From Escherichia coli (GTDB lineage: Bacteria > Pseudomonadota > Gammaproteobacteria > Enterobacterales > Enterobacteriaceae): 20,311 nucleotides of DNA. The notes under the pieces were generated by a model. It saw only the letters and a program-made list of their open reading frames with translations. It made no database searches and was not told the DNA's origin. This document shows, one piece after another, positions 2,353 to 20,311 of this stretch (the first letter of the stretch is position 1; the number at the start of each line of letters is the position of its first letter). The stretch is taken from assembly GCF_003334335.1 (NCBI RefSeq), contig NZ_QOWQ01000053.1, one strand, 5' to 3'. Both the position numbers and the translations under genes were made by a program.

Positions 2353-2361
2353 GGAAAGAGC

Positions 2362-5300: not shown

Positions 5301-5985
5301 AAAAAAAGATGCTACTCAGGTGAGCAAAAACCTGCTCCCGCGTCTTGAAGCTGCCCTACGTACCACCCGACGCTGGTCGCTGGCAGATTTTCATTCTCTG
5401 TTTGTTAATCATCCCTTTACCCGTCTGGTTACCCAGCGATTAATATGGGTGGTTTATCCGGCAAATGAACCGCGTTGTTTACTCAAAGCCTTTCGTGTGG
5501 CCGCAGAGGGGGAGTTCTGCAATGCGCAAGATGAGCCAATTGACCTGCCTGCGGACGCTCTGATTGGCATTGCCCACCCGTTAGAAATGACAGTAGAAAT
5601 GCGCAGTGAATTTGCACAGCTTTTTGCCGATTACGAAATTATGCCGCCTTTTCGCCAGTTGTCGCGCCGCACGGTGCTGCTCACACCTGACGAGTCAACC
5701 AGTAACAGCCTGACTCGCTGGGAAGGTAAATCCGCTACCGTTGGGCAGCTTATGGGAATGCGATACAAAGGCTGGGAGTCAGGCTATGAGGACGCATTTG
5801 TGGGCGAGTACCGGCTGGTCCTTAAGTTTTCACCCGGTTTTAACCACTACAATGTTGATAGCAAAGCGTTAATGAGCTTCCGTTCTCTTCGAGTGTACCG
5901 TGACAATAAATCCGTCACTTTTGCCGAACTTGATGTGTTTGATTTGAGTGAGGTGTTAAGCGCACCTGACGTCATTTTCCATTAA
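2362..5985 (+). CDS. yehI: YehI, 1207-aa DUF4132-family protein of unknown function
   Basis: A long uninterrupted ORF. ATG 2362 lies 9 nt after the upstream stop and is preceded by AAGGAAAGAG. Length and sequence match my memory of E. coli YehI (~1210 aa). The C-terminal two thirds are paralogous to the ORF at 127..2352. Confidence 0.93.
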   Translation: MDKELPWLADNAQLELKYKKGKTPLSHRKWPGEPVPVITESIIQTLGDKLLQKAEKKKNIVWRYENFSLEWQSAITQAINLIGEHKPSIPARTMAALVCIAQNDSQQLLDEIVQQEGLEYATEVVIARQFITRCYESDPLLVTLQYQDEDYGYGYRSETYNEFDLRLRKHLSLAEESSWQRCADKLIAALPGIPKIRRPFIALLLPEKPEIANELASLESSRSSLHSKEWLKVIATDNTAVKKLERYWGLDVFSDREASYMSQENRFGYAACASLLREQGLAAVPRLAMYAHKEDCGSLLVQINHPQVIRTLLLVADKNKPSLQRVAKYSKNFPHATLAALAELLALKEPPARPGYPIIEDKKLPAQQKARDEYWRTLLQTLMASQPQLAAEVMPWLSTQARAVLNSYLSAPPKPVIDSTDNSSLPEMLVSPPWRSKKKMTAPRLDLAPLELTPQIYWQPGEQERLAATESARYFSTESLAERMEQKSGRVVLQELGFGDDVWLFLNYILPGKLDAARNSLIVQWHYYQGRVEEILNGWNSPQAQLAEQALRSGHIEALINIWENDNFSRYRPEKSVWNLYLLAQLPREMALTFWLRIIEKKHLFAGEDYFLSILGLDALPGLLLAFSHRPKETFPLILNFGATELALPVARVWRRFAAQRDLARQWILQWPEHTASALIPLVFTKPSDNSEAALLALRLLYEQGHGELLQTVANRWQRTDVWSALEQLLKQGPMDIYPARIPKAPDFWHPAMWSRPRLITNNQPVTGDALEIIGEMLRFTQGGRFYSGLEQLKTFCQPQTLAAFAWDLFTAWQQAGAPAKDNWAFLALSLFGDESTARDLTTQILAWPQEGKSARAVSGLNILTLMNNDMALIQLHHISQRAKSRPLRDNAAEFLQVVAENRGLSQEELADRLVPTLGLDDPQALSFDFGPRQFTVRFDENLNPVIFDQQNVRQKSVPRLRADDDQLKAPEALARLKGLKKDATQVSKNLLPRLEAALRTTRRWSLADFHSLFVNHPFTRLVTQRLIWVVYPANEPRCLLKAFRVAAEGEFCNAQDEPIDLPADALIGIAHPLEMTVEMRSEFAQLFADYEIMPPFRQLSRRTVLLTPDESTSNSLTRWEGKSATVGQLMGMRYKGWESGYEDAFVGEYRLVLKFSPGFNHYNVDSKALMSFRSLRVYRDNKSVTFAELDVFDLSEVLSAPDVIFH

Positions 5986-5991
5986 AAACAC

Positions 5992-6017
5992 AGCGGGCAG
6001 TGATGCAACTGCCCGTT
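5992..6017 (+). other. Intergenic stem-loop between yehI and yehK
   Basis: cgggcagt (5994-6001) pairs perfectly with actgcccg (6008-6015) around a 6-nt loop gatgca, and is extendable by A-T/G-T pairs. Only a weak T-tract follows (ttatcaac), so it is at best a partial terminator or an RNA-stability element. Confidence 0.35.
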
Positions 6018-6046
6018 ATCAACACGACTTACCAGCGGGGAAAGCG

Positions 6047-6364
6047 ATGATCGTGCAAAAAGAGCTGGTTGCTATTTACGATTATGAGGTCCCTGTACCT
6101 GAAAATCCGTTTTCCTTCAGACTTGAGATCAATAAATGCTCTGAATTATTTACAGGTTCCGTCTATCGACTGGAGCGATTCCGGCTACGTCCAACATTTC
6201 ATCAACGTGATCGAGAAGATGCTGACCCGCTAATAAATGATGCGTTGATTTATATAAGAGATGAGTGTATTGATGAGCGGAAATTACGAGGTGAATCACC
6301 TGAAACTGTAATAGCAATTTTTAATCGTGAACTACAGAATATATTCAACCAAGAAATAGAATAA
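6047..6364 (+). CDS. yehK: YehK, 105-aa protein of unknown function
   Basis: ATG 6047 is preceded by GGGGAAAG. The 105-aa length matches E. coli YehK as I remember it. The gene is visibly AT-richer than its neighbours. Confidence 0.85.
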   Translation: MIVQKELVAIYDYEVPVPENPFSFRLEINKCSELFTGSVYRLERFRLRPTFHQRDREDADPLINDALIYIRDECIDERKLRGESPETVIAIFNRELQNIFNQEIE

Positions 6365-6441
6365 TATACTCTAAATAATTCAAATTGGTCCGATCCGGCG
6401 CAACGTCCCAATGGCCTGGATTATAAATCTCATTATCTTAA

Positions 6442-6470
6442 TTGCAACGGGGTCCAGCCGTGGTTATAAT
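6442..6470 (+). promoter_or_regulatory. Near-consensus sigma70 promoter (TTGCAA-17 nt-TATAAT)
   Basis: -35 ttgcaa at 6442-6447, an exact 17-nt spacer at 6448-6464, and a perfect -10 tataat at 6465-6470. It lies in the yehK-yehL intergenic region. Predicted TSS is about 6477. Confidence 0.45.
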
Positions 6471-6476
6471 TCGTTC

Positions 6477-6559
6477 GTTGGAACACGATGTTGCACAGGC
6501 TGCGGTGTTGGGCCTGAAAATAGTAAATAAAAGAACCTGCCTCACCAGCAGGTTTTTTT
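6477..6559 (+). ncRNA. Candidate ~80-nt small RNA, or terminated leader of the yehL operon
   Basis: Bounded by the promoter at 6442-6470 and the intrinsic terminator at 6534-6559. It contains a stem-loop caggc/gcctg (6496-6516), then an A/U-rich stretch aaaatagtaaataaaag, then the terminator with a U7 tail. It holds no ORF beyond 9 codons. Confidence 0.3.
6534..6559 (+). terminator. Rho-independent terminator
   Basis: aacctgc (6534-6540), loop ctcacca, gcaggtt (6548-6554), running into T7 (6553-6559). An A-rich tract upstream (aaataaaag) makes it potentially bidirectional. Confidence 0.75.
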
Positions 6560-6670
6560 ATTTACTGTGATCTGCTTTCCAGATATTTTCCGCTCAAACA
6601 ACTAATGCGCCAAACATTTATTGCGCGTAAAATATCGTTTATTTCATTAATACATTTCAGGGATGAATAT

Positions 6671-7759
6671 ATGTCACCGCAGAATAATCATCTGCAGCGT
6701 CCGCCTGCTGCTGTGTTATACGCCGATGAACTGGCAAAATTAAAACAAAATGATAACGCACCTTGCCCGCCCGGTTGGCAGTTAAGTTTGCCTGCGGCCC
6801 GTGCTTTTATCCTTGGCGATAGCGCGCAAAATATTAGCCGTAAAGTGGTGATTAGTCCCTCCGCTGTCGAACGCATGTTAGTCACTCTTGCCACCGGGCG
6901 CGGTTTGATGTTGGTGGGGGAACCTGGCACCGCAAAATCTCTCCTGTCTGAATTACTGGCAACCGCTATTAGCGGCGATGCCGGGTTAACCATCCAGGGC
7001 GGCGCATCTACTACCGAAGATCAAATCAAGTACGGCTGGAACTACGCCCTGCTTATCAATCATGGTCCATCAACGGAAGCGCTGGTCCCTGCCCCGCTTT
7101 ACCAGGGAATGCGCGACGGCAAAATCGTCCGTTTTGAAGAGATAACGCGTACACCGCTGGAAGTGCAAGACTGTCTGTTAGGTATGCTTTCTGACAGGGT
7201 GATGACGGTGCCGGAACTCACTGGTGAAGCCAGTCAGCTCTATGCGCGAGAAGGCTTTAATATTATTGCCACTGCCAATACCCGCGATCGCGGCGTCAAT
7301 GAAATGAGTGCTGCGCTAAAGCGTCGCTTCGATTTTGAAACTGTCTTTCCGATTATGGATTTCGCCCAGGAGCTGGAGCTTGTCGCCAGTGCTTCGGCGC
7401 GTTTGCTGGCCCATAGCGGTATTCCGCATAAAGTGCCTGACGCGGTACTGGAGTTACTGGTCCGCACCTTCCGCGATCTGCGTGCCAACGGCGAAAAGAA
7501 AACGTCAATGGATACACTAACAGCGATTATGTCCACCGCTGAAGCCGTGAACGTGGCCCACGCCGTAGGCGTCCGCGCCTGGTTTTTAGCGAATCGCGCA
7601 GGTGAGCCAGCCGACCTGGTGGACTGCATTGCCGGAACCATCGTCAAAGATAACGAAGAAGATCGCGCTCGTCTGCGCCGTTACTTCGAACAACGAGTCG
7701 CCACACATAAAGAAGCTCACTGGCAGGCTTATTATCAAGCCCGCCACCGCCTGCCGTGA
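6671..7759 (+). CDS. yehL: YehL, MoxR-class AAA+ ATPase (362 aa)
   Basis: ATG 6671 with AGGGA upstream gives the 362 aa I remember for K-12 YehL, whereas the track ORF starts at 6605. Walker A GEPGTAKS is at 6917-6940 and a Walker-B-like VRFEEI lies downstream. Size and layout fit a single-AAA MoxR protein. Confidence 0.93.
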   Translation: MSPQNNHLQRPPAAVLYADELAKLKQNDNAPCPPGWQLSLPAARAFILGDSAQNISRKVVISPSAVERMLVTLATGRGLMLVGEPGTAKSLLSELLATAISGDAGLTIQGGASTTEDQIKYGWNYALLINHGPSTEALVPAPLYQGMRDGKIVRFEEITRTPLEVQDCLLGMLSDRVMTVPELTGEASQLYAREGFNIIATANTRDRGVNEMSAALKRRFDFETVFPIMDFAQELELVASASARLLAHSGIPHKVPDAVLELLVRTFRDLRANGEKKTSMDTLTAIMSTAEAVNVAHAVGVRAWFLANRAGEPADLVDCIAGTIVKDNEEDRARLRRYFEQRVATHKEAHWQAYYQARHRLP

Positions 7760-7769
7760 GGAAAGATGC

Positions 7770-10049
7770 ATGAGCGAGCCGTTAATTGTCGGCATCCGGC
7801 ATCATAGTCCGGCCTGCGCCCGGCTGGTGAAATCGTTAATCGAAAGCCAGCGGCCACGATACGTATTGATTGAAGGCCCGGCTGATTTTAATGACCGGGT
7901 AGACGAACTGTTTTTAGCCCACCAGCTTCCGGTAGCTATTTACAGTTATTGCCAGTATCAGGACGGTGCAGCCCCCGGGCGTGGTGCCTGGACGCCATTT
8001 GCTGAATTTTCGCCGGAGTGGCAGGCGCTACAAGCCGCACGTCGTATTCAGGCACAAACTTACTTCATCGATTTGCCTTGCTGGGCGCAGAGTGAAGAAG
8101 TGGACGATTCGCCTGATACGCAAGAGGAAAGCCAGGCCTTGCTGCTGCGTGCCACCTGCATGGATAACAGCGACACCCTGTGGGATCACTTGTTCGAAGA
8201 TGAAAGCCAGCAAACTGCATTACCCTCTGCACTGGCGCACTATTTTGCCCAACTGCGGGGCGACTCCCCCGGAGATGCTCTCAATCGTCTGCGCGAAGCC
8301 TTTATGGCCCGCTGGATTGGATGGGCGATGCAGCAAAATAATGGCGACGTGTTAGTTGTCTGCGGTGGCTGGCACGCTCCGGTACTGGCAAAAATGTGGC
8401 GCGAATGCCCGCAGGAAATTAACACGCCAGAATTGCCGTCGCTGGCAGATGCCGTTACAGGTTGTTATCTCACCCCCTACAGTGAAAAGCGCCTTGATGT
8501 GCTGGCAGGATACCTTTCCGGAATGCCTGCCCCGGTCTGGCAAAACTGGTGCTGGCAGTGGGGCTTACAGCAGGCGGGAGAACAACTGCTAAAAACGGTT
8601 CTCACCCGTTTGCGCCAGCACAAGTTGCCTGCTTCGACCGCGGATATGGCTGCCGCTCATCTGCATGCGATGGCACTGGCACAGTTGCGCGGTCATACAC
8701 TACCGTTACGCACTGACTGGCTGGATGCCATAGCAGGATCGCTGATTAAAGAAGCCCTGAATGCGCCGTTGCCGTGGAGCTATCGCGGCGTTATTCATCC
8801 CGACACCGATCCGATTCTGCTAACGTTGATAGACACATTAGCGGGTGACGGATTCGGTAAACTTGCCCCTTCTACGCCACAACCTCCTCTGCCAAAAGAT
8901 GTCACCTGCGAACTGGAACGTACCGCAATCTCCCTTCCGGCGGAGCTTACCTTAAATCGCTTTAACCCCAATGGACTAGCGCAAAGTCAGGTGTTACATC
9001 GGCTGGCAATACTGGAGATCCCAGGGATTGTGCGCCAGCAGGGAAGCACACTGACACTTGCAGGCAACGGTGAAGAACACTGGAAATTAACCCGCCCGCT
9101 TAGCCAGCATGCGGCATTGATTGAGGCCGCCTGCTTTGGTGCCACACTCCAGGAAGCCGCACGCCATAAATTAGAAGCCGATATGCTGGACGCGGGTGGA
9201 ATCGGCAGTATCACCACATGTCTTAGCCAGGCGGCGTTAGCGGGTCTGGCGTCCTTCAGTCAACAATTACTGGAGCAACTCACATTATTAATCGCCCAGG
9301 AAAATCAATTTGCCGAAATGGGCCAGGCGCTGGAAGTGCTATATGCCTTATGGCGGCTGGATGAAATTAGCGGTATGCAAGGCGCGCAGATATTACAAAC
9401 GACGTTATGCGCGGCTATCGATCGCACGCTGTGGCTGTGTGAATCTAACGGCAGACCGGATGAAAAGGAGTTTCACGCTCACCTGCATAGCTGGCAAGCG
9501 CTTTGCCATATTCTGCGCGATCTACATAGCGGCGTTAATTTATCCGGCGTTTCGCTTTCTGCGGCGGTAGCCTTACTGGAGCGACGCAGTCAGGCGATTC
9601 ATGCCCCGGCGCTGGATCGCGGCGCGGTTCTTGGCGCACTAATGCGTCTGGAACATCCCAACGCCAGTGCCGAAGCGGCGCTGACGATGCTGGCGCAGTT
9701 ATCCCCGGCACAATCCGGCGAGGCGCTGCACGGTTTGCTGGCATTAGCCCGTCATCAACTGGCCTGTCAGCCGGCATTTATCGCCGGTTTCAGCAGTCAT
9801 TTAAATCAACTAAGTGATGCCGATTTTACCAATGCCCTGCCCGATTTACGCGCGGCAATGGCCTGGCTACCGCCACGAGAACGCGGGACGCTGGCGCATC
9901 AGGTGCTTGAGCATTATCAACTGGCGCAACTTCCCGTTTCGGCACTGCAAATGCCGTTGCATTGTCCACCGCAAGCCATTGCACATCATCAACAACTCGA
10001 ACAGCAGGCACTGGCATCGCTGCAACACTGGGGAGTTTTCCATGTCTGA
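7770..10049 (+). CDS. yehM: YehM, 759-aa protein of unknown function (I believe DUF5682 family)
   Basis: ATG 7770 lies 10 nt after the yehL stop and is preceded by GAGGAAAG. It yields 759 aa, matching K-12 YehM from memory. The upstream extension to 7602 lies inside yehL. I cannot name a catalytic motif. The C-terminal half is Ala/Leu-rich and looks helical. Confidence 0.92.
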   Translation: MSEPLIVGIRHHSPACARLVKSLIESQRPRYVLIEGPADFNDRVDELFLAHQLPVAIYSYCQYQDGAAPGRGAWTPFAEFSPEWQALQAARRIQAQTYFIDLPCWAQSEEVDDSPDTQEESQALLLRATCMDNSDTLWDHLFEDESQQTALPSALAHYFAQLRGDSPGDALNRLREAFMARWIGWAMQQNNGDVLVVCGGWHAPVLAKMWRECPQEINTPELPSLADAVTGCYLTPYSEKRLDVLAGYLSGMPAPVWQNWCWQWGLQQAGEQLLKTVLTRLRQHKLPASTADMAAAHLHAMALAQLRGHTLPLRTDWLDAIAGSLIKEALNAPLPWSYRGVIHPDTDPILLTLIDTLAGDGFGKLAPSTPQPPLPKDVTCELERTAISLPAELTLNRFNPNGLAQSQVLHRLAILEIPGIVRQQGSTLTLAGNGEEHWKLTRPLSQHAALIEAACFGATLQEAARHKLEADMLDAGGIGSITTCLSQAALAGLASFSQQLLEQLTLLIAQENQFAEMGQALEVLYALWRLDEISGMQGAQILQTTLCAAIDRTLWLCESNGRPDEKEFHAHLHSWQALCHILRDLHSGVNLSGVSLSAAVALLERRSQAIHAPALDRGAVLGALMRLEHPNASAEAALTMLAQLSPAQSGEALHGLLALARHQLACQPAFIAGFSSHLNQLSDADFTNALPDLRAAMAWLPPRERGTLAHQVLEHYQLAQLPVSALQMPLHCPPQAIAHHQQLEQQALASLQHWGVFHV

Positions 10050-11178
10050 ACTGAACGATCTTCTGACCACCCGTGAGCTACAACGCTGGCGATTAATTCT
10101 TGGCGAAGCGGCAGAAACGACGCTTTGTGGGCTGGATGACAACGCCCGGCAGATAGACCACGCGCTGGAGTGGCTGTATGGGCGCGATCCTGAACGGCTC
10201 CAGCGTGGTGAACGCTCCGGTGGATTAGGTGGCTCAAATCTCACCACCCCTGAGTGGATCAACAGTATTCACACGCTGTTTCCGCAACAGGTGATTGAGC
10301 GGCTGGAAAGCGATGCCGTACTGCGCTACGGCATTGAAGATGTGGTGACAAATCTCGACGTGCTGGAACGTATGCAGCCTTCCGAAAGCCTGCTACGCGC
10401 CGTTTTGCACACCAAACATCTGATGAATCCCGAAGTACTGGCTGCCGCCCGCCAGATAGTGCGCCAGGTTGTTGAAGAAATTATGGCGCGACTGGCAAAG
10501 GAAGTTCGCCAGGCTTTTTCTGGTGTCCGCGATCGCCGTCGCCGTTCATTTATTCCACTGGCGCGAAACTTTGATTTCAAAAGTACTCTGCGCGCCAACC
10601 TGCAACACTGGCACCCGCAACACGGCAAGTTGTATATCGAATCCCCCCGCTTTAACAGCCGCATTAAACGCCAAAGCGAACAATGGCAACTGGTCTTACT
10701 GGTTGATCAAAGCGGATCGATGGTCAATTCGGTGATCCACTCTGCGGTGATGGCGGCCTGTTTGTGGCAGTTACCCGGCATTCGTACCCATCTGGTGGCG
10801 TTTGACACAAGCGTCGTTGATCTCACGGCAGACGTTGCCGATCCGGTAGAGTTATTAATGAAAGTACAGTTGGGCGGCGGGACCAATATCGCCAGTGCCG
10901 TGGAGTATGGTCGGCAACTTATTGAACAACCAGCGAAAAGCGTCATTATCCTCGTGAGCGATTTTTACGAAGGGGGTTCATCATCATTACTGACGCATCA
11001 GGTGAAAAAGTGTGTCCAGAGCGGCATCAAAGTGCTGGGACTGGCAGCGCTCGATAGCACCGCAACACCTTGCTATGACCGCGATACGGCCCAGGCGCTG
11101 GTTAATGTCGGCGCACAAATAGCCGCCATGACGCCGGGCGAGCTGGCATCATGGCTTGCGGAGAATCTTCAGTCATGA
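10042..11178 (+). CDS. yehP: YehP, von Willebrand factor A (VWA) domain protein (378 aa)
   Basis: ATG 10042 overlaps the yehM stop by 8 nt (ATGTCTGA). 378 aa matches K-12 YehP from memory. The MIDAS signature DxSxS = DQSGS is at 10705-10719, followed by GGGTN and SDFYEG. Confidence 0.93.
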   Translation: MSELNDLLTTRELQRWRLILGEAAETTLCGLDDNARQIDHALEWLYGRDPERLQRGERSGGLGGSNLTTPEWINSIHTLFPQQVIERLESDAVLRYGIEDVVTNLDVLERMQPSESLLRAVLHTKHLMNPEVLAAARQIVRQVVEEIMARLAKEVRQAFSGVRDRRRRSFIPLARNFDFKSTLRANLQHWHPQHGKLYIESPRFNSRIKRQSEQWQLVLLVDQSGSMVNSVIHSAVMAACLWQLPGIRTHLVAFDTSVVDLTADVADPVELLMKVQLGGGTNIASAVEYGRQLIEQPAKSVIILVSDFYEGGSSSLLTHQVKKCVQSGIKVLGLAALDSTATPCYDRDTAQALVNVGAQIAAMTPGELASWLAENLQS

Positions 11179-13178
11179 ATTCACTACGTCCGGAATTATT
11201 AGAACTGACACCACAGGCCCTGACGGCGTTAAGCAATGCCGGTTTTGTTAAGCGCAGTCTTAAGGAACTGGAAAATGGCAACGTCCCGGAGATCAGCCAT
11301 GAGAACGACGCTTTAATCGCCACCTTCAGTGACGGTGTCCGTACCCAGCTGGCGAACGGCCAGGCACTGAAAGAGGCTCAGTGCAGTTGCGGGGCCAACG
11401 GTATGTGCCGTCATCGCGTGATGCTGGTGTTAAGTTATCAACGACTTTGTGCCACCACTCAGTCTACGGAAAAAGAAGAAGAGTGGGATCCGGCAATCTG
11501 GCTGGAAGAACTGGCTACCCTTCCCGATGCTACCCGCAAACGCGCACAGGCACTGGTCGCTAAAGGCATCACCATTGAGTTGTTCTGTACGCCGGGCGAA
11601 ATTCCCTCTGCCCGCTTACCGATGAGCGATGTGCGTTTTTATTCCCGTAGCAGCATTCGTTTCGCCCGTTGTGATTGTATTGAAGGCACACTTTGCGAAC
11701 ATGTCGTACTGGCAGTACAGGCCTTTGTCCAGGCAAAAGCGCAGCAAGCGGAATTGACTCATTTAATCTGGCAGATGCGCAGCGAACACGTCACATCATC
11801 TGACGATCTGTTTGCCAGCGAAGAAGGCAAAACGTGTCGTCAATATGTTCAGCAACTAAGCCAGGCATTATGGCTGGGCGGCATCAGCCAGCCGCTTATT
11901 CACTACGAGGCCGCTTTCAGCCGCGCGCAGCAAGCAGCGGAACGCTGCAACTGGCGATGGGTGAGTGAATCGCTACGGCAACTGCGCGCCAGCGTTGATG
12001 CCTTCCACGCCCGCGCCAGCCACTATCATGCCGGAGAATGCTTACGTCAGCTTGCGGCATTAAACAGTCGATTAAATTGCGCACAAGAGATGGCGCGGCG
12101 CGACAGTGTTGGTGAAGTTCCTCCTGTGCCGTGGCGCACGGTCGTTGGCTCTGGCATTGCCGGAGAAGCAAAGCTTGATCATCTGCGGCTGGTGTCTTTA
12201 GGTATGCGTTGCTGGCAGGATATTGAGCATTATGGTTTACGCATCTGGTTTACCGATCCCGACACCGGCAGTATTTTGCACCTTTCGCGCAGTTGGCCGC
12301 GAAGTGAACAGGAAAACTCACCGGCAGCTACGCGTCGGCTGTTTAGTTTTCAGGCTGGCGCACTGGCGGGTGGGCAAATTGTTTCACAAGCAGCAAAACG
12401 CAGTGCCGATGGCGAGCTGCTGTTAGCTACCCGCAACCGCTTAAGCAGCGTTGTGCCGCTGTCGCCTGATGCCTGGCAAATGTTGAGCGCGCCGTTACGC
12501 CAGTCGGGCATTGTGGCTTTGCGGGAATATTTACGCCAGCGTCCCCCCTCCTGCATACGGCCTCTTAATCAGGTCGATAACTTATTTATTCTGCCGGTCG
12601 CTGAGTGTATTTCGCTCGGTTGGGATAGCAGCCGCCAGACGCTGGATGCGCAGGTAATCAGCGGCGAAGGTGAAGATAATCTGCTGACGTTATCACTGCC
12701 AGCCTCAGCCAGCGCGCCTTATGCCATTGAACGCATGGCGGCGCTTTTGCAACAAACAGACGACCCCGTGTGTCTGGTTTCTGGCTTTGTCAGTTTTGTT
12801 GATGGGCAATTGACACTGGAACCACAGGTAATGATGACAAAGACTCGTGCCTGGGCGCTGGACGCAGAAACTGCGCCTGTGGTGGCATCACTACCTTCTG
12901 TCAGCGTTCTGCCTGTGCCGTCTACTGCTCATCAGTTGCTGATGCGCTGCCAGGCATTACTTATTCAACTGCTCCATAACGGCTGGCGCTATCAGGAACA
13001 GAGTGCTATTGGTCAGGCAGAGTTGCTGGCGAATGACCTCACCGCGGTGGGTTTTTATCGGCTGGCACATGTATTGGGACAATTTCGTAATACAGAAAGC
13101 GAGGCACGGGTAGAAGCAATGAATAACTGCGTTTTGCTGTGCGAACAATTATTCCCCATGCTTCAGCAACAAGGATGA
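11175..13178 (+). CDS. yehQ: YehQ, SWIM zinc-finger protein (667 aa from the coupled start)
   Basis: ATG 11175 overlaps the yehP stop as ATGA (11175-11178). There are two CxCx5CxH motifs: CSCGANGMCRH (about 11382-11414) and CDCIEGTLCEH (11670-11702). An alternative in-frame ATG at 11151 lies inside yehP. I am unsure of the reference length of YehQ. Confidence 0.85.
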   Translation: MNSLRPELLELTPQALTALSNAGFVKRSLKELENGNVPEISHENDALIATFSDGVRTQLANGQALKEAQCSCGANGMCRHRVMLVLSYQRLCATTQSTEKEEEWDPAIWLEELATLPDATRKRAQALVAKGITIELFCTPGEIPSARLPMSDVRFYSRSSIRFARCDCIEGTLCEHVVLAVQAFVQAKAQQAELTHLIWQMRSEHVTSSDDLFASEEGKTCRQYVQQLSQALWLGGISQPLIHYEAAFSRAQQAAERCNWRWVSESLRQLRASVDAFHARASHYHAGECLRQLAALNSRLNCAQEMARRDSVGEVPPVPWRTVVGSGIAGEAKLDHLRLVSLGMRCWQDIEHYGLRIWFTDPDTGSILHLSRSWPRSEQENSPAATRRLFSFQAGALAGGQIVSQAAKRSADGELLLATRNRLSSVVPLSPDAWQMLSAPLRQSGIVALREYLRQRPPSCIRPLNQVDNLFILPVAECISLGWDSSRQTLDAQVISGEGEDNLLTLSLPASASAPYAIERMAALLQQTDDPVCLVSGFVSFVDGQLTLEPQVMMTKTRAWALDAETAPVVASLPSVSVLPVPSTAHQLLMRCQALLIQLLHNGWRYQEQSAIGQAELLANDLTAVGFYRLAHVLGQFRNTESEARVEAMNNCVLLCEQLFPMLQQQG

Positions 13179-13256
13179 AATAGTGCTTTTTACTAAGAGT
13201 TCTACTCCAGTTCCGGACTGCTCACACCACGGTATTAGGCATATCCTATATAGCCC

Positions 13257-13273
13257 CTGGTGAGAGTCACCAG
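13257..13273 (+). other. Perfect 7-bp hairpin/palindrome in the yehQ-yehR spacer
   Basis: ctggtga-gag-tcaccag, followed by ttccttgatt. It could be a weak operon-end terminator or a protein-binding palindrome 30 nt upstream of the yehR start. Confidence 0.3.
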
Positions 13274-13302
13274 TTCCTTGATTAAATAAAATGGAGTTTT
13301 AC

Positions 13303-13764
13303 ATGAAGGCTTTCAATAAGCTGTTTTCCCTTGTTGTTGCATCTGTTCTGGTTTTCTCTCTTGCTGGCTGCGGTGACAAAGAAGAATCGAAGAAATTCAG
13401 CGCCAATCTGAACGGCACTGAAATTGCCATTACCTATGTCTACAAAGGTGACAAGGTGCTTAAGCAATCTTCAGAAACCAAAATTCAATTTGCCTCTATT
13501 GGTGCAACCACCAAAGAAGACGCTGCCAAGACACTTGAGCCGTTAAGCGCCAAATACAAAAACATCGCGGGTGTTGAAGAAAAATTAACCTATACCGATA
13601 CCTACGCGCAGGAAAACGTGACTATCGATATGGAAAAAGTGGATTTTAAAGCCCTGCAGGGTATTTCAGGAATCAACGTTTCTGCTGAAGATGCCAAAAA
13701 AGGTATCACTATGGCGCAAATGGAACTGGTGATGAAAGCCGCTGGTTTTAAAGAAGTGAAATAA
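13303..13764 (+). CDS. yehR: YehR, predicted lipoprotein (153 aa)
   Basis: ATG 13303 with GGAG 6 nt upstream. The signal peptide ends in the lipobox LAGC (Cys23). 153 aa matches K-12 YehR from memory. Confidence 0.92.
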   Translation: MKAFNKLFSLVVASVLVFSLAGCGDKEESKKFSANLNGTEIAITYVYKGDKVLKQSSETKIQFASIGATTKEDAAKTLEPLSAKYKNIAGVEEKLTYTDTYAQENVTIDMEKVDFKALQGISGINVSAEDAKKGITMAQMELVMKAAGFKEVK

Positions 13765-13770
13765 TCTGTC

Positions 13771-13795
13771 GGCGGCCATGTTTCGCATGGCCGCC
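13771..13795. terminator. GC-rich hairpin between convergent yehR and yehS
   Basis: ggcggccatg (13771-13780) pairs with catggccgcc (13786-13795) around a 5-nt loop. It sits between two convergent stop codons (13764 and 13805). There is no clean U-tract on either strand. Confidence 0.55.
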
Positions 13796-13804
13796 ATACC
13801 CGTC

Positions 13805-14275
13805 TTAGCTTTTCTTCACATGCTGGCGCGCTGCCAGTCCACGCAGAAAATAACGTAAAAATTGATCGCCGCATTCGCGGAAGTTTTTATGATCCGGTGC
13901 ACGCATCATCGCCGTAATTTCCGGCATCGAAACGCGGAACTGCTGTTCGGTGAGGATCGCCAGAATGTCATCGGTTTTCAGCGAAAACGCGATGCGTAAT
14001 TTTTTTAGCACGATGTTGTTATTAATGCGACGTTCCGGCTCCAGTGCCGGAGCAGACTCATCCTTGCCGCGTTTTTCATAAATCAGGCCATTGAGGAATG
14101 ACGACAAAACAATGTCCGGACAACGCTGAAAACCCTCTTCGTCTTCTTTACGTAGCCAGACGGCGATCTGTTCCGCGGTGGCTTCGACATTACCCAGCGC
14201 CAGAATACGCACCAGGTCATTATTATTGGCTTTCAAAATGTAGCGCACGCTGCGCAGAATATCGTTACTTAGCAT
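13805..14275 (-). CDS. yehS: YehS, DUF1456-type protein (156 aa)
   Basis: The internal ATG at 14275 (MLSNDILRSV...) has AAGG upstream and gives the 156 aa remembered for K-12 YehS. The gene lies 46 nt downstream of btsR on the same strand. From memory, YehS is reported as a connector of the BtsSR and YpdAB systems. Confidence 0.9.
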   Translation of the reverse strand: MLSNDILRSVRYILKANNNDLVRILALGNVEATAEQIAVWLRKEDEEGFQRCPDIVLSSFLNGLIYEKRGKDESAPALEPERRINNNIVLKKLRIAFSLKTDDILAILTEQQFRVSMPEITAMMRAPDHKNFRECGDQFLRYFLRGLAARQHVKKS

Positions 14276-14321
14276 GAGGCCTTCAGGTGTTGATGAGGCA
14301 AAAAGCCATTTTAGCAGTCTT

Positions 14322-15041
14322 TTACAGGCCAATCGCCTCTTTTAAGCTTTTCAGATAACGGCGGCTGACCGGCACGGTTAAGCCATTACGCAAAATCAAC
14401 TCGGCCTGGCCGTTATCTTCCAGACGAATCTCCTGTAAATGCGCGAGGTTAACCAGATACTGACGATGGCAGCGCAGTAGTGGTGTACGACTTTCCAGGG
14501 TACGTAATGTCAATTCGGTAAAGCCCTCTTTCCCTTCGTGGCTGGTAACGTAGACACCGCTCATCCGACTGCTGACAAATGCCACATCTTTCATTTGCAG
14601 CAAATAAATCCGACTATGCCCAGTACAAGGGATAAATTTCAGCGCCTGTTGATTTTCTGGTAACAGCGAAACATCCTGCTTGCTGCGTTCCTGCCGCAAA
14701 CGCGCCAGCGTTTTCTCCAGTCGCGCTTCATCAATTGGCTTCAGCAGATAATCAAAGGCGTGTTCTTCAAAGGCTTTAATGGCGTATTCGTCAAACGCGG
14801 TGAGAAAAACAATATACGGACGATGTTCCGGGTCGAGCATCCCCACCATTTCCAGACCACTGATGCGCGGCATCTGGATATCGAGAAACAGCACATCCGG
14901 GCGCAGTTTATGCACCGCGCCGATCCCTTCCACGGCGTTTGAACACTCACCAACGATTTCAATATCGCTCTGCTCCTGCAAAAATACGCGCAGGTTCTCC
15001 CGTGCTAACGGTTCATCATCGACAATTAAGACTTTAATCAT
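14322..15041 (-). CDS. btsR: BtsR (YehT), LytTR-family response regulator (239 aa)
   Basis: The receiver domain starts [14 protein letters not shown], with the phospho-acceptor context LFLDIQMP, and the C-terminal domain is LytTR-type. The start ATG overlaps the btsS stop as ATGA (15038-15041). Confidence 0.95.
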
Positions 15042-16723
15042 GCCTCGTCCCTCCATGGTAGTCGTAACGTTATTCGGGTGTAACTATCAGGCTCACAGGC
15101 GACGCTTATCCCATAGTCATCGCCAAACCGTTCACGTAAACGCTTATCCACCAGATTCATCCCCAGCCCACTGGCATTGGTTACCGGTTGATACAAACCG
15201 GCATTGTCTTCGATCTCCAGCATCAAATGTTGCCCCTCACGTCGGGCGCTGATTGCCACTCGCCCTGTATCCAGCAGTTGTGATGTCCCATGTTTAATGG
15301 CGTTTTCCACTATCGGTTGCAGGGTAAACGCGGGCAATTGCTGCTGGGATAATTCTTGCGGAATAGCAATGTTGACCTGCAACCGCGACTGGAAGCGCGC
15401 CTTTTCAATTTGCAGATAAGCGTTCACATGTTCAATTTCGTCGGCGAGAGTAACAAACTCCGAAGGCCGCTTTAAGTTTTTGCGGAAAAAAGTGGAAAGA
15501 TACTGCACCAGCTGGCTGGCCTGTTCGCTGTCGCGACGGATCACCGCTTTAATGGTGTTAAGCGCATTAAACAAAAAATGGGGGTTCACCTGGGCGTGAA
15601 GCAGTTTGATCTCTGACTGGGTGAGCATCGCTTTTTGCCGCTCATATTGCCCGGCGAGGATCTGCGCCGAAAGCAGTTGCGCAATCCCCTCGCCCAGCGT
15701 GCGGTTGATTGAACTGAATAAACGGTTTTTGGCTTCATACAATTTGATGGTGCCCATCACCCGCTGATTTTCACCACGCAACGGAATTACCAGCGTCGAC
15801 CCCAGTTTGCATTGCGGATGCAAAGAGCAACGATAAGGTACTTCGTTGCCATCAGCGTAGACCACTTCACCGGTTTCAATCGCTTTTAAGGTGTAAGTCG
15901 AAGATATCGGTTTGCCGGGTAAATGGTGGTCGTCACCAATTCCGGTAAAGGCCAGCAATTTCTCTCGATCGGTAATCGCGACTGCACCAATATCCAGCTC
16001 CTGATACAGCACCTGTGCCACTTTCATGCTGTTCACTTCGTTAAACCCCTGGCGCAAAATGCCTTCCGTCGAGGCAGCCACTTTCAGCGCAGTGGCAGAA
16101 AAAGCCGAAGTGTATTTTTCAAACATCGCGCGTTTATCGAGCAATATACGCATAAACAGCGCCGCGCCGACGGTATTGGTGACCATCATTGGCGCAGCAA
16201 TATTACTCACCAGACGCACCGCATCTTCATAAGGTCGGGCGATCGCCAGGATGATCAACATTTGCACCATTTCAGCGACGAACGTGACGGCACCGGCGGT
16301 AATGGGGTTAAAGACTTTATCAGTGCGCCCGCGACGGATCAGGATGCTGTGTACCAGGCCGCCGAGCAATCCTTCAACGATGGTCGAGATCATGCAACTT
16401 AGCGCGGTCATGCCCCCCATCGAATATCGATGTAACCCGCCGGTCAGGCCAACCAGCCCACCGACGACCGGACCGCCGAGTAAGCCGCCCATTACCGCGC
16501 CTATCGCACGGGTATTGGCAATAGAATCGTCAATGTGCAACCCAAACCAGGTGCCCATGATGCAGAAGATGGAAAAGACGATGTAGCAGAGAAATTTATG
16601 CGGCAGACGAACCGTGACCTGCATTAACGGTATGAATAATGGCGTTTTACTCATTAACCATGCAATGACTAAAAAAACGCACATCTGCTGAAGCAGCAGC
16701 AACACCAGATTAAAATCGTACAT
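15038..16723 (-). CDS. btsS: BtsS (YehU), LytS-type sensor histidine kinase (561 aa), pyruvate sensing
   Basis: Start [10 protein letters not shown] at 16723 gives 561 aa. The N-terminus is polytopic and Gly-rich, the central part is GAF-like, and the C-terminal kinase carries [16 protein letters not shown] and an HATPase region. It matches K-12 YehU/BtsS from memory. Confidence 0.95.
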
Positions 16724-16944
16724 ACCCGCAAACCACACTTCCCTTTAAAACGCGTAACATACATTGCCTGCGTTTAACTTTCTTTGAACTCTTGCAGAAA
16801 AATGAGAATTCGTGAGTACGATCACTCAAAATCGCCTGGCAAAAATAAAATCACCCTATAAATGCACAAAAAACGGGCAAAACTACCTGGTTCGCAAAAC
16901 TGCGTCTAAAGTTAAACCGGGACCTCGCGAGCAAGGGTGAGACG

Positions 16945-17013
16945 ATGGCGCTTTACACAATTGGTGAAGTGGCGTTGCTTTGTGATATTAACCCTGTCAC
17001 GTTACGCGCGTGA
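16945..17013 (+). pseudogene. mlrA: 5' fragment of mlrA (yehV), the MerR-family activator of csgD, truncated after codon 22
   Basis: It reads MALYTIGEVALLCDINPVTLRA then TGA, whereas MlrA continues WQRRYGLLKPQ. Nothing downstream in any frame continues MlrA. The truncation falls inside the N-terminal HTH. Confidence 0.85.
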
Positions 17014-17030
17014 CGCAACATTTTTAAAAA

Positions 17031-17110
17031 TCGACGAAGATCGTCCAGGAGCGCCGTTTTTCAAGGGTTGGATAGATGATTCGTTTACCATGTCGACGAA
17101 CTTCGACGAA
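17031..17110. repeat. Three copies of TCGACGAA, two of them 10 bp apart
   Basis: tcgacgaa occurs at 17031-17038, 17093-17100 and 17103-17110, followed by a degenerate ttcgccga. gacga/tcgtc forms a small inverted repeat at 17033-17045. The palindrome T5A5 at 17021-17030 lies just after the junction. Confidence 0.6.
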
Positions 17111-17136
17111 TTTCGCCGATAAAAAGTGTCCCATAC

Positions 17137-17156
17137 ATGCCCCATTGATGCCCCAT
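17137..17156. repeat. Tandem ATGCCCCAT x2 with 11-bp register
   Basis: atgccccat occurs at 17137-17145 and 17148-17156. Confidence 0.6.
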
Positions 17157-17171
17157 AAACAATATCAGGAA

Positions 17172-17201
17172 TTGACACTGGTTATCCATACAGACAAAAA
17201 T
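17172..17201 (+). promoter_or_regulatory. Candidate promoter of the dinI-like gene (TTGACA-18 nt-AAAAAT)
   Basis: A perfect -35 ttgaca at 17172-17177 and a weak -10 aaaaat at 17196-17201. The predicted TSS falls inside the LexA box. Confidence 0.35.
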
Positions 17202-17206
17202 AACAC

Positions 17207-17222
17207 CTGTACATAACCACAG
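17207..17222 (+). promoter_or_regulatory. LexA (SOS) box CTG-N10-CAG
   Basis: acCTGtacataaccaCAGtt has the CTGT-N8-ACAG core. It lies 16 nt upstream of the dinI-like ATG and resembles the chromosomal dinI operator as I remember it (ACCTGTATAAATAACCAGTA). Confidence 0.6.
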
Positions 17223-17237
17223 TTACAGGAGGGTGTT

Positions 17238-17486
17238 ATGCGTGTTGAGATCTGTATCGCTAAAGAAAAAATCAGCAAAATGCCAAAAGGTTCTGTTTCT
17301 GCCCTGCAGCAAGAAATGCTTCGACGTGTCAGTAAACGTTATGACGATGTGGACGTGATTGTCAGAGCCGCCAACAATGACAGTCTCACCATTTTAAGAG
17401 CTGTAGATAAAGAATCCGCGCACGAATTTGTTCAGGAAACACTGCAGGAAGCCTGGGAAACCGCTGACGACTGGTTTATTCGGTAA
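17238..17486 (+). CDS. DinI-family protein (82 aa), prophage-encoded
   Basis: AGGAGGG lies 5 nt upstream of the ATG. It aligns with E. coli DinI (MR.E..IAK at the N-terminus; [12 protein letters not shown] against LQETWESADDWF at the C-terminus). Confidence 0.88.
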
Positions 17487-17497
17487 ATCTTCTTTAC

Positions 17498-17524
17498 GGG
17501 GAGTTAACTTACTCCCCATTTTTT
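17498..17524 (+). terminator. Rho-independent terminator of the dinI-like gene
   Basis: ggggagt (17498-17504), loop taactt, actcccc (17511-17517), then A+T6. The T-tract overlaps the stop codon of the convergent small ORF. Confidence 0.8.
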
Positions 17525-17651
17525 ATTGCATGATAATTGCAGCAACGGCACAGAGTGTCACCACACCACCCAGCCACACAAACAGCATGAAGCACATTGC
17601 TCCCGCTGTATAACGTTTTCTCCCGTACATACGGCATTTGTCTTTATTCAT
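17523..17651 (-). CDS. Candidate 42-aa single-pass membrane peptide
   Basis: MNKDKCRMYGRKRYTAGAMCFMLFVWLGGVVTLCAVAAIIMQ has a basic N-terminus followed by a ~24-residue hydrophobic helix. AGGGG lies 6 nt upstream of this ATG, and a second ATG sits one codon upstream at 17654. The ORF lies 46 nt downstream of the LuxR-type gene on the same strand. I recognise no family. Confidence 0.3.
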   Translation of the reverse strand: MNKDKCRMYGRKRYTAGAMCFMLFVWLGGVVTLCAVAAIIMQ

Positions 17652-17700
17652 CATCTGCCCCTGAATCACATGAAGACGCTGCAGGTCCGGTAACACTGAA

Positions 17701-18174
17701 TCACTCCGCACACGCAAGATGTTTCACGCTCACACCATACAGCCCGTTTTTCGCCATTCCCGTATACAGAAAGGTATTCACCGTCTTCGTGTGAATGCCC
17801 ATTTCACTGGCAAGGCGACAGGGTCTCGACTGGCGGTAGACGTAGCCAAACATCACCACCATCTCTGACATCGTCAGCGGACGGGCAACGCTGTTATACG
17901 TCCATACACCATTGCGTATGGCATCACTTATCTGCTCACCATCACGGAGTGATTCCGCACCCAGTTGCAGAAAATGCCGTCCCTGGAACATGCAGCGCAT
18001 CAGTCTGCCCAGCAACGTATCACAGATTATCAGCCAGGATTCGTCAAAGTCCGGGATATAACGGCGGTTCTCCGGCAGGAAAAACTCCCTCGCCAGTATC
18101 ACACTGTGTTCCTTCAGTAACGCCTGCAGACCATACTCCAGATAGCGATTCCTGGTAGCCAGAATCACCTTCAT
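17701..18174 (-). CDS. Small LuxR/GerE-type HTH regulator with a degenerate receiver-like N-terminus (157 aa)
   Basis: The C-terminus LTMSEMVVMF...RLASEMGIHTKTVNTFLYTGMAKNGL fits the LuxR/FixJ HTH pattern (LT..E..V......iA.elgIs.kTV..h...i..KLg.). The N-terminus MKVILATRNRY lacks the acidic DD pocket. ATG 18174 has GGAAGG 7 nt upstream, whereas the track start at 18204 has no SD. Confidence 0.75.
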   Translation of the reverse strand: MKVILATRNRYLEYGLQALLKEHSVILAREFFLPENRRYIPDFDESWLIICDTLLGRLMRCMFQGRHFLQLGAESLRDGEQISDAIRNGVWTYNSVARPLTMSEMVVMFGYVYRQSRPCRLASEMGIHTKTVNTFLYTGMAKNGLYGVSVKHLACAE

Positions 18175-18209
18175 CGCAGCACCTTCCTGTTTTTTATGCC
18201 CCATGAAAA

Positions 18210-18238
18210 ACGGCAGACCAGAGTCCTGCGCCTGCCGT
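18210..18238 (-). terminator. Weak terminator/attenuator after the adhesin gene
   Basis: On the - strand acggcag (18238-18232) pairs with ctgccgt (18216-18210) around a 15-nt loop, followed by only TTTT. It sits directly upstream of the LuxR-type gene, so read-through is likely. Confidence 0.35.
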
Positions 18239-18262
18239 CATGCTTCATGTCACTGTCAGCAA

Positions 18263-19336
18263 TTAAAACTCGAAGTTCACACCTACGTTGTAGGAAACAT
18301 CACCGTCGCTGGCCGCAATACCTGCTTTGGCTGCGGTCTGCTCGTTGAAGCGGTAACCCACACCAACAGCCACAGCCTGTTTGTCACTGTAACCACCCAG
18401 GGCTGCCGTGGCGTTGAATTTACCCACACTGTACGGCTGGAACAGACCGGACAGCGCCGCACTCTGTGCTGCCGCACGTTTCATTTCTTCGTGGTTTTCA
18501 CGAATCTGGCGCTGCTGGCTGTTCAGGCGTGCGTTATGCTCCTGCAGCTGGCGGGAGTGATTCTGGATAGCCTGGGTGTTACTGCGGGTTCTGTTGTCGA
18601 GGCTGACAACAGCATCATTCACACGAACGTTGCCCGGTGCGCTCTGGTCAAGTGTATAGCTGCCATCTTTATTCTGATAAATTGTTGTATCTGCTTTCAC
18701 ACCCGCAACAACGCTCTTCACAGATACACTTTCAACACCCTGTCCATCAGTAATTTCACCATTCTCATCAAGGGCAAATGTAGTGGCATTTTTCAGGTCA
18801 TTTACATTTGTGCCGAGACGGTTGAACTCATTCAGTAACCCACCTGTCGAATCCTGTTTAACAGCAGCCAGAGCTGACTCAACACTAACACCGTTGTTAA
18901 TGGCTGTGTTATAAGCCCTTGCTGTTTTTGTTGTAATGGTTTCTGAAACAATATCGATGGTTTCTTTTAGTTTATTTAGTTTTTCCTCTGTTATATTTCC
19001 AATGTTTTCTTTTTTTAGTTCTGGTGCATCAATAGTGTAACGAACAGACTCCAGAAGTGATTGAACCTTATCCTTGTTTTTTATATCATTTACATTTATA
19101 CCATTTACTTTTTTCTTCCACTCATCTCTATTAAACGTTGTAATAGTTCCTGTGACCGTGTTAGCAATAATTCCTTCGCCATTTTTATTTACAATTTTAG
19201 CCATATCACCGTTATTATAAAACTCAACTCTGAAATCACCTCTTGTAAAATTCTCCTGCGCTATAGCACCACCACTCACCAACAACAGACCGGCAACAGC
19301 AGATGAAAGAATAGTCTTTGTAAATTTCTTGCTCAT
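18263..19336 (-). CDS. Trimeric autotransporter adhesin with YadA-type C-terminal anchor, Eib-like (357 aa)
   Basis: The Sec signal peptide [26 protein letters not shown]|QE is followed by a Q/N/R-rich coiled-coil stalk ([37 protein letters not shown]). The C-terminal 4-strand anchor is [63 protein letters not shown], ending in aromatic F. From memory this anchor is very close to the prophage-borne Eib proteins. Confidence 0.9.
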
Positions 19337-19353
19337 GTGGTATACCCTATAAA

Positions 19354-19382
19354 ATTATCTGTATACAAATAAAACAGTTCAA
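19354..19382 (-). promoter_or_regulatory. Candidate sigma70 promoter of the adhesin gene (TTGAAC-17 nt-GATAAT)
   Basis: On the - strand the -35 is ttgaac (19382-19377), the spacer is 17 nt, and the -10 is gataat (19359-19354). The palindrome TGTATACA (19360-19367) lies in the spacer. The ATG is about 18-25 nt downstream of the predicted TSS. Confidence 0.45.
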
Positions 19383-19439
19383 CATCGGATATATAAAGAA
19401 AATCTGATGTCTCGCCGCTCTCATGAGCTTACTCCTGAA

Positions 19440-19477
19440 GAAATTCCGAATTTTAATATGAAGTTTTTCGGAATTTC
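19440..19477. repeat. Perfect 11-bp inverted repeat GAAATTCCGAA / TTCGGAATTTC with a 16-nt spacer
   Basis: The arms are at 19440-19450 and 19467-19477. The repeat lies about 60-100 bp upstream of the adhesin promoter candidate. Confidence 0.75.
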
Positions 19478-19712
19478 CTTACTATAACGTCGGTGATATC
19501 ACGTCCGCGAAGGGGTATCCGCATTACGACTGGCCTGCCACTTATGCTGTCTCTTTATTCATCAACAATTTGTATACGGTTACATCTTTAATTGTGAAGT
19601 TAGTCACAAAAAGAAGAAAGTCAAATAATCAAATTGTGCTTAACTGTTTACATCAGCACAATCTGATAACCATTGAAGGACGCACTAAATTATTTTCAGC
19701 AATCCCTCAGCC

Positions 19713-19729
19713 TACGAAAATTCTGTATT
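19713..19729. repeat. Copy 1 of the exact 17-mer TACGAAAATTCTGTATT
   Basis: It is identical to 19889-19905, which lies 176 bp away. Confidence 0.85.
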
Positions 19730-19882
19730 TGATGATTGTTTTATTTGCTCTCTTTTTATGCAGCCATTCTGTTGCTTATAAAAAAGCACCACTATCTCAT
19801 GTATAATTTCTGGGTCTGTCGTCTCCCCGTTTTTCACTTACAGATGCCGGGCAACATTCAGTTGCCGGAATCAGCAGTTACC

Positions 19883-19909
19883 ATGCAATACGAAAATTCT
19901 GTATTGCAT
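19883..19909. repeat. Copy 2 of the 17-mer, embedded in the perfect 9-bp inverted repeat ATGCAATAC / GTATTGCAT
   Basis: The 17-mer is at 19889-19905. The inverted-repeat arms are at 19883-19891 and 19901-19909 around a 9-nt loop gaaaattct. Confidence 0.85.
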
Positions 19910-19977
19910 CCACGCCCTCATCTCAATATCTTTGTCGCCGGATAAAAATAACTATCAACCACAAGTATCATGCTCTC

Positions 19978-20003
19978 GGGGAGCACGCACTCCCCAGTTT
20001 TTT
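19978..20003 (+). terminator. Rho-independent terminator, + orientation
   Basis: ggggag (19978-19983), loop cacgca, ctcccc (19990-19995), then ag and T6 (19998-20003). On the - strand no T-tract follows the hairpin. Confidence 0.75.
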
Positions 20004-20106
20004 ATCTTTGACAGGGGTGAAGGAGGCCGTTGCATCTCCTTTAATTATCATTGCCAGATTATTTCCTCGACCTGAGTATTCTTTATTTAGCCATAGTTTT
20101 GTAGCA

Positions 20107-20132
20107 AGGGGCTGGAGCGCCCCTCTTTTTTT
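20107..20132 (+). terminator. Rho-independent terminator, + orientation, abutting the stop of the convergent phage gene
   Basis: aggggc (20107-20112), loop tggagc, gcccct (20119-20124), then c and T7 (20126-20132). The last T is part of the - strand stop codon (20132-20134). Confidence 0.7.
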
Positions 20133-20311
20133 CACCTGTCAGCCATGCCGACCTTATACGCCAGTATAGCTTCCGCATCACCCAGCGCTTCAATCTCTTT
20201 TTTCATCGTGCGCTGTCTGACATGAATTTCCAGACCTTTGGTAAACATCGCCTGCTCTGCAGCAGCACTCAGAGCAATCAGTGTTTCAGCGTCCATCGGT
20301 ACGTCATTATT
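20132..20311 (-). CDS. 3' end (59 codons) of a phage gene truncated by the window edge, possibly a tail-fibre-region protein with a DUF4376-like C-terminus
   Basis: The - strand frame is open to the window edge: ...NNDVPMDAETLIALSAAAEQAMFTKGLEIHVRQRTMKKEIEALGDAEAILAYKVGMADR*. The pattern resembles C-terminal domains I associate with phage tail-fibre accessory proteins. That assignment is from memory only. Confidence 0.55.
   Translation of the reverse strand, partial: NNDVPMDAETLIALSAAAEQAMFTKGLEIHVRQRTMKKEIEALGDAEAILAYKVGMADR

Follow-up and report, generated by a model that had tools for sequence, protein, structure and literature searches.

An integrase-distal prophage junction interrupts mlrA (yehV) after codon 22 in Escherichia coli

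The regulatory gene mlrA (yehV) breaks off after its 22nd codon in a stretch of 20,311 nucleotides of Escherichia coli DNA (assembly GCF_003334335.1, contig NZ_QOWQ01000053.1; the whole stretch is called the window in what follows), and the break almost certainly marks where a lambda-like, essentially PhiR5_1 prophage residing in mlrA ends on its integrase-distal side, the attR of lambda nomenclature. MlrA activates csgD (curli, cellulose). The integration of lambdoid phages in mlrA/yehV is an already known and documented arrangement, and the window shows this known event in another backbone and with an apparently non-Stx lambda-like phage.

Results

The 5′ end of mlrA and the chromosome to its left

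The features of the chromosomal side and of the break are the following:

15038–16723, minus strand: btsS (yehU), sensor kinase, left neighbour of mlrA (open reading frame list; btsS has 1686 nt in STEC2018-553 and K-12, matching in position)
16724–16944: unchanged btsS–mlrA intergenic region, with the promoter and 5′ UTR native to mlrA (identity to PS10-3 and K-12)
16945–17013, plus strand: 5′ stub of mlrA (yehV), codons 1–22 and then TGA (translation and alignments with intact mlrA)
16992–17012: 21-bp att core CCCTGTCACGTTACGCGCGTG, common to attB, the window junction and the integrase-side junction (alignment with the PEC1009 attB and with SW070917)

The stub opens with an ATG at 16945, encodes 22 residues (MALYTIGEVALLCDINPVTLRA) and is closed by a TGA at 17011–17013. 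These residues are identical to residues 1–22 of K-12 MlrA, in which residue 23 is Trp, and the stub is no chance open reading frame. A previous sequence-only reading of the window had described precisely this arrangement, MlrA 1–22 followed by TGA in place of Trp23, and was borne out at 16945–17013; the end coordinate that it gave, 17030, extends 17 bases into the phage arm. DNA alignments with the intact genes of K-12 and PEC1009 showed agreement through 17012 and unrelated sequence from 17013 on, this first phage-specific base being the one that converts the TGG of codon 23 to TGA. When the full MlrA protein was compared with the whole window by tblastn, residues 1–22 were the sole match (E = 3.8e-10), and no further pieces of MlrA were detected in the window, all other matches having E > 1. 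Similarly, nt 1–68 of the gene were the sole match by blastn, and no frame continuing MlrA was found anywhere in the window. An intact continuation of mlrA immediately to the right, which the sequence-only reading had named as the observation that would count against it, was thus found by neither program over the whole window.

According to Pfam, MlrA comprises a MerR_1 domain at residues 4–72 (MerR at residues 5–42) and helical and C-terminal domains at residues 81–238. The break after residue 22 falls inside the MerR-type helix-turn-helix (HTH), as had been proposed, and only residues 1–22 of the full polypeptide with its HTH, helical and C-terminal domains are encoded in the window. The mlrA of the window is a gene fragment and not a functional MlrA member.

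The DNA to the left of the junction corresponds to normal chromosome, with the yehH to yehS cluster, btsR and btsS. Positions 1–16990 are 99.9% identical to several E. coli genomes, and positions 16700–17012 are 100% identical to PS10-3 and 99.4% identical to K-12, with mlrA annotated under the match in both. An unoccupied attB was found in a close relative of the host, PEC1009, whose backbone is 99.9% identical and whose intact mlrA (732 nt) shows no difference from the window through 17012. Since the backbone is 99.9% identical to that of strains with an intact mlrA, the insertion took place in a normal locus. The G+C content is 44.6% in the phage part versus 51.6% in the chromosomal part. 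No complete genome uniting this backbone with this phage end was found in the collection searched, the best matches to the whole window covering 96% of it at about 97.6% identity. At the other extreme of the window, many otherwise collinear genomes match only from base 78 and not over positions 1–77; this left end, which lies before a 741-aa DUF4132 gene or where that gene begins, varies between strains.

The attachment core and the phage arm

Alignment with an uninterrupted mlrA, the check suggested in the sequence-only reading, and with the integrase-side junction of SW070917 defined the 21-bp att core CCCTGTCACGTTACGCGCGTG at 16992–17012, which falls in mlrA codons 16–23. In the VT1-Sakai record (AP000400.1), 20 bp of it (window 16993–17012) are annotated as “attachment site of Enterobacteria phage VT1-Sakai” next to a likewise annotated truncated yehV′. 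The 21 bp of the core are annotated as attR in JLK-2012 and as “direct repeat due to prophage insertion” in YYZ-2008. The junction therefore lies at the known mlrA/yehV att core, identical to that annotated in these three phages, and the VT1-Sakai annotation agrees with the earlier statement that lambdoid phages including Stx1 phages use yehV/mlrA as their attachment site. The elements recognized around the core and in the adjoining arm are:

16996–17014: inverted repeat GTCACG-TTACGCG-CGTGAC, candidate core-type Int sites (sequence reading and palindrome search)
17013–17237: phage att arm of the integrase-distal side, corresponding to the P arm of the lambda attR (identity to yehV phages and PhiR5_1)
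17031–17115: three copies of TCGACGAAnnTCG, at 17031, 17093 and 17103 (direct repeat search and motif scan)
17127–17159: three tandem 11-bp repeats TG(T/C)CCCATnnA, at 17127, 17138 and 17149 (motif scan)

By analogy with lambda-type att cores, the half-sites at 16996–17014 may be bound by Int as core-type sites flanking a 7-bp overlap region, TTACGCG (17002–17008), in which strand exchange probably takes place; if so, the last few codons of the stub may physically be phage DNA. The hairpin that these bases could form (16995–17015) was also considered as an intrinsic terminator insulating the phage from the mlrA promoter. This function was not supported, as the fold energy of −9.8 kcal/mol (z = −1.56) was equalled or bettered by 13 of 200 shuffled sequences and is not above chance, and the hairpin is better read as the inverted repeat of the core.

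The segment comprising the junction and the arm (16985–17240, 256 nt) showed a mean column identity of 97% to VT1-Sakai, JLK-2012, YYZ-2008 and Stx2_EH2201, and positions 17012–17700 were 100% identical to PhiR5_1. The TG(T/C)CCCATnnA repeats, which also occur twice and with equal spacing in the integrase-side arm of the related genome SW070917, are plausible candidates for arm-type Int binding sites given the arm DNA-binding domain (PF12167) of the PhiR5_1 integrase, and the copies of TCGACGAAnnTCG may be possible sites for accessory proteins. Conservation across the yehV phages is uninformative for the candidate arm-type sites, given that the whole arm is about 97% conserved and no motif stands out. 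The arm was also observed in the Stx2a phage Stx2_EH2201 (LC567829.1), whose positions 332–588 correspond to window 16985–17240 from TGACGCAAC onward. The core of this phage, GCCCGTCACTTTAACTGCATG, is similar but different, so the phage sits in a different attB, and the att arm appears to be a module common to phages with different integration sites.

Prophage genes to the right of the junction

To the right of the core, matches to DinI, phrog and DUF4376 families support the phage content, and the following features were found:

17205–17224: LexA (SOS) box, CTGT-N8-ACAG (sequence reading; aligns with the “putative SOS box” of VT1-Sakai)
17238–17486, plus strand: dinI-like gene, 82 aa (Pfam DinI, 4.5e-16; phrog_189, 1.3e-25; DinI-like in relatives)
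17523–17717, minus strand: small phage open reading frame of no known function, 174 nt in relatives (phrog_9340, 7e-24; hypothetical in STEC2018-553 and PhiR5_1)
17701–18204, minus strand: phage open reading frame of no known function, 157 aa in relatives (phrog_6585, 9.4e-97)
18263–19336, minus strand: cargo gene for a 357-aa YadA-anchor protein, trimeric autotransporter adhesin-like (Pfam YadA_anchor, 9.8e-16)
20132–20311, minus strand: DUF4376 tail-fibre assembly gene, of which the window contains the 3′ end (Pfam DUF4376, 4e-06; tail fiber assembly in PhiR5_1)

The sequence-only reading had placed the tail and cargo end of the phage at the junction, and the order dinI-like gene, two open reading frames, YadA-anchor gene and DUF4376 gene conforms to this. 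The LexA box precedes the dinI-like gene, the first one inside the prophage end, by 14 bp and matches the annotated box of VT1-Sakai, so the gene is probably SOS-induced. No Pfam domain was found in the open reading frames at 17523–17717 and 17701–18204, which are conserved and lie downstream of the adhesin-like gene.

In the cargo protein, the YadA_anchor domain occupies residues 299–357. As judged from the sequence, this C-terminal YadA-type anchor would be preceded by a coiled-coil stalk; among the PDB entries, YadA (2lme, 1.7e-18) and the stalk of EibD (2xzr, 7e-08, a weak relation to Eib) were matched. The counterpart of the gene in PhiR5_1 is annotated as “putative adhesin/invasin”. The length of the protein varies among related prophages, with 357 aa in the window and 420 aa in STEC2018-553, and the gene is preceded by a 795-bp spacer (19337–20131) with 39% G+C and no annotated gene.

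Identity of the phage

When the phage part of the window (17013–20311) was compared with the end of PhiR5_1 (PV340545.1), 3299 of 3299 nt were aligned with one mismatch (99.97% identity), a comparison that covers the 3.3 kb visible in the window, the terminal 6.5% of the phage genome. PhiR5_1 (50,981 bp) is lambda-like, with int, xis, exo/bet/gam, cI/cro/cII, O/P, Q, lysis genes, Nu1 to J, lom and tail fibre genes. Its gene order at the matching end is that of the window, and int and xis are located at the opposite end. The integrase contains Arm-DNA-bind_2 (PF12167) and Phage_integrase (PF00589) domains, and the adjacent xis matches DUF1233, a putative excisionase family. The phage, for which a literature search returned no relevant paper, was deposited as a complete genome and had been propagated on E. 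coli C. As the record is cut inside the core and has no host flanks, we infer from the match with the window and from the integrase that its integration site would be the mlrA core.

No Shiga toxin gene was present among the 77 features listed for bases 1–50000 of PhiR5_1 or in the remaining end. The prophage of the window may lack stx as well, the identity with PhiR5_1 on which this rests covering its last 3.3 kb. PhiR5_1 also carries a HipA-like toxin and antitoxin pair beside cI (7915–9488), which would lie outside the window if the window prophage is PhiR5_1.

The far junction and its frequency

The sequence-only reading had predicted that the integrase end and the 3′ part of mlrA lie beyond the window. 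This agrees with the far ends of PhiR5_1 (int and xis) and of the prophage in SW070917 (NZ_CM129862.1), where the 3′ part of mlrA is present in addition. The phage end of SW070917 is 99.6% identical to the window, and its far prophage end contains xis followed by int, after which mlrA resumes at codon 16, 20 bp past the int stop. The integrase adjoining this distal mlrA is 99% identical to that of PhiR5_1. At the integrase-side junction the same 21-bp core CCCTGTCACGTTACGCGCGTG was found, from which mlrA continues (distal mlrA sequence after the core, GCAGAGGCGTTACGG). From these relatives, the far junction would be expected in the window strain too.

In SW070917 the 22-codon stub is annotated as an incomplete hypothetical protein. 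The distal part (ACVF33_RS08830, 7504–8205 of the extracted segment) is annotated by PGAP as “HTH-type transcriptional regulator MlrA”, a protein of 233 aa with an ATT start and no pseudogene flag. However, this fragment matches MlrA only from codon 16, and both helix 1 of the HTH and positions 1–15 of the MerR_1 profile are missing from it. A replacement N-terminus for MlrA supplied by the phage was rejected, as the frame opens right after a TAA and offers no ATG, GTG or TTG. Because the distal frame has no canonical start and lacks the first 15 MerR_1 positions, the phage does not rebuild mlrA. Two further observations were made on the SW070917 prophage: a complete Mu-like prophage has inserted into its tail-gene region, and an ompC-like porin gene is found with its tail genes.

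The frequency of the arrangement was determined in 5426 complete E. coli genomes. The att region was unsplit in 4944 of them; the dinI-side junction, as in the window, was present in 462 and the integrase-side junction in 457. About 9% of the complete genomes are thus occupied, and the similar counts indicate that nearly always both standard ends are present.

Comparison with known systems

The O157:H7 Stx1 prophage VT1-Sakai (Sp15)/CP-933V has the same attB, core and truncated yehV′ stub as the window. Its arm is homologous to that of the window, including the SOS box and the dinI-like first gene, with about 97% identity over 16985–17240; beyond the arm both diverge, and the identity over window positions 16992–17486 falls to 86.9% overall. 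After dinI, VT1-Sakai carries H0002–H0004 and a tail fibre, and the window carries the YadA-anchor cargo gene instead. Next to the phage, the host backbone of the window does not resemble O157:H7, whose junction is about 95% identical, and the phage end of the window matches the non-Stx, lambda-like PhiR5_1.

Lambda, which integrates at the gal-bio attB, likewise employs an arm-binding tyrosine integrase and an excisionase, and has inverted half-sites around a 7-bp spacer, to which the elements of the window may be compared by analogy. The order of the window-type prophage would also be lambda-like (int-xis ... J-lom-stf-tfa-attR), with candidate arm-type repeats in both arms. Nevertheless, the attB of lambda is intergenic and its occupation harmless, whereas that of the window lies inside mlrA codons 16–23, so that lysogeny inactivates a host gene. 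In the active lysogeny of Listeria, the phi10403S prophage splits comK. Both there and in mlrA a regulatory gene is split, and precise excision can regenerate it. Excision from mlrA is not known to be a programmed non-lytic switch, and reported excisants are rare (PMC5931665).

Discussion

The arrangement would arise when the arm-binding tyrosine integrase of the phage recombines attP with the attB that spans mlrA codons 16–23, a reaction expected to duplicate the 21-bp core at both prophage ends. The native mlrA promoter now drives only the 22-codon stub, terminated by the TGA that the phage makes, and the remaining 221 codons would be found about 51 kb away, just downstream of int, without promoter or canonical start codon. 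The split takes helix 1, together with half of the recognition helix, off the MerR-type HTH. With the break after residue 22 inside the HTH, no DNA-binding MlrA can therefore be made, and MlrA-dependent activation of csgD is expected to disappear or to fall sharply for as long as the prophage stays in place.

Other origins of the truncated gene were weighed against this one. The stop falls exactly at the position of Trp23, one base away from TGG, as a simple TGG to TGA nonsense mutation in codon 23 of an otherwise contiguous mlrA would have it. This explanation can be dismissed, since past 17012 there is no likeness to mlrA in DNA or protein and the sequence is that of a phage, 99.97% identical to PhiR5_1; the claim of the sequence-only reading that the break is an insertion junction rather than a point nonsense mutation is therefore upheld. 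An assembly artefact, in which the end of a chromosomal contig and a prophage contig were joined at a short common repeat, could be suspected on the grounds that the join sits at a 21-bp sequence present twice in a lysogen. It is extremely unlikely, however, given that 462 genomes finished independently of one another have the identical join, as do curated phage records, and that it is the expected biological product.

It is also very improbable that the window belongs to a decayed prophage remnant in which the integrase end, the 3′ part of mlrA or both have been deleted, making the split irreversible. Only one prophage end is seen in the window, and in the genome sample about 480 genomes lack an unsplit site versus 457–462 with each standard junction, so that a few tens may carry altered ends; moreover, Shaikh & Tarr 2003, which PMC5931665 cites along with Brown 2001 and Uhlich 2013 and 2016, deals with truncated yehV prophages. 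Against this, the visible 3.3 kb differ by one base from the complete PhiR5_1, which argues for a recent, undecayed prophage, and the near-equal junction counts (462 versus 457) suggest that nearly all carriers have both ends. An integrase-distal junction of a PhiR5_1-like prophage is thus the reading followed here.

Regarding the phenotype, prophage insertions in mlrA were present in 53 of 55 O157:H7 strains, in which they have been described as a major limitation of curli and biofilm, and in 4 of 19 non-O157 STEC strains; curli returned in O103 and O113 strains given mlrA in trans, whereas two non-motile O145 strains were not rescued (PMC3874044). RpoS-dependent csgD expression is enhanced by MlrA, as summarized in PMC5931665, where it is also stated, citing Uhlich 2016, that excision regenerates the native mlrA in the O157:H7 strain PA20 and that excisants are rare. 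SOS or prophage induction in PA20 leads to strong transcription of the distal mlrA fragment, and with recombinant versions of such fragments Congo-red affinity came back in part, whereas biofilm formation did not (PMC5931665). The correlation between an occupied mlrA and the loss of curli and biofilm, named in the sequence-only reading, is accordingly a published one (PMC3874044, PMC5931665). The wording of that reading that the prophage removes the activator is slightly too strong, as distal fragments have partial effects (PMC5931665). A curli-low phenotype would be expected for the window strain, in a strain-dependent manner, since mlrA did not restore curli in every strain (PMC3874044).

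A more far-reaching proposal is that the distal fragment serves as a phage-controlled decoy for the partners of MlrA, the phage re-wiring surface and biofilm properties reversibly and contributing a YadA-type adhesin of its own. It is suggested by the fact that the helical and C-terminal domains are retained in this fragment, which follows int directly and is SOS-transcribed in PA20 (PMC5931665), and we regard the proposal as quite unlikely.

The occupation of mlrA is a recognised reason for low curli and biofilm formation in many pathogenic E. coli, above all O157:H7, and serves as a typing marker by means of yehV junction PCRs. Gene-presence screens based on annotation could miss the disruption, given that a 233-aa distal “MlrA” is scored as present. 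For the annotation of the strain analysed here, mlrA is to be called disrupted and a curli-low phenotype predicted.
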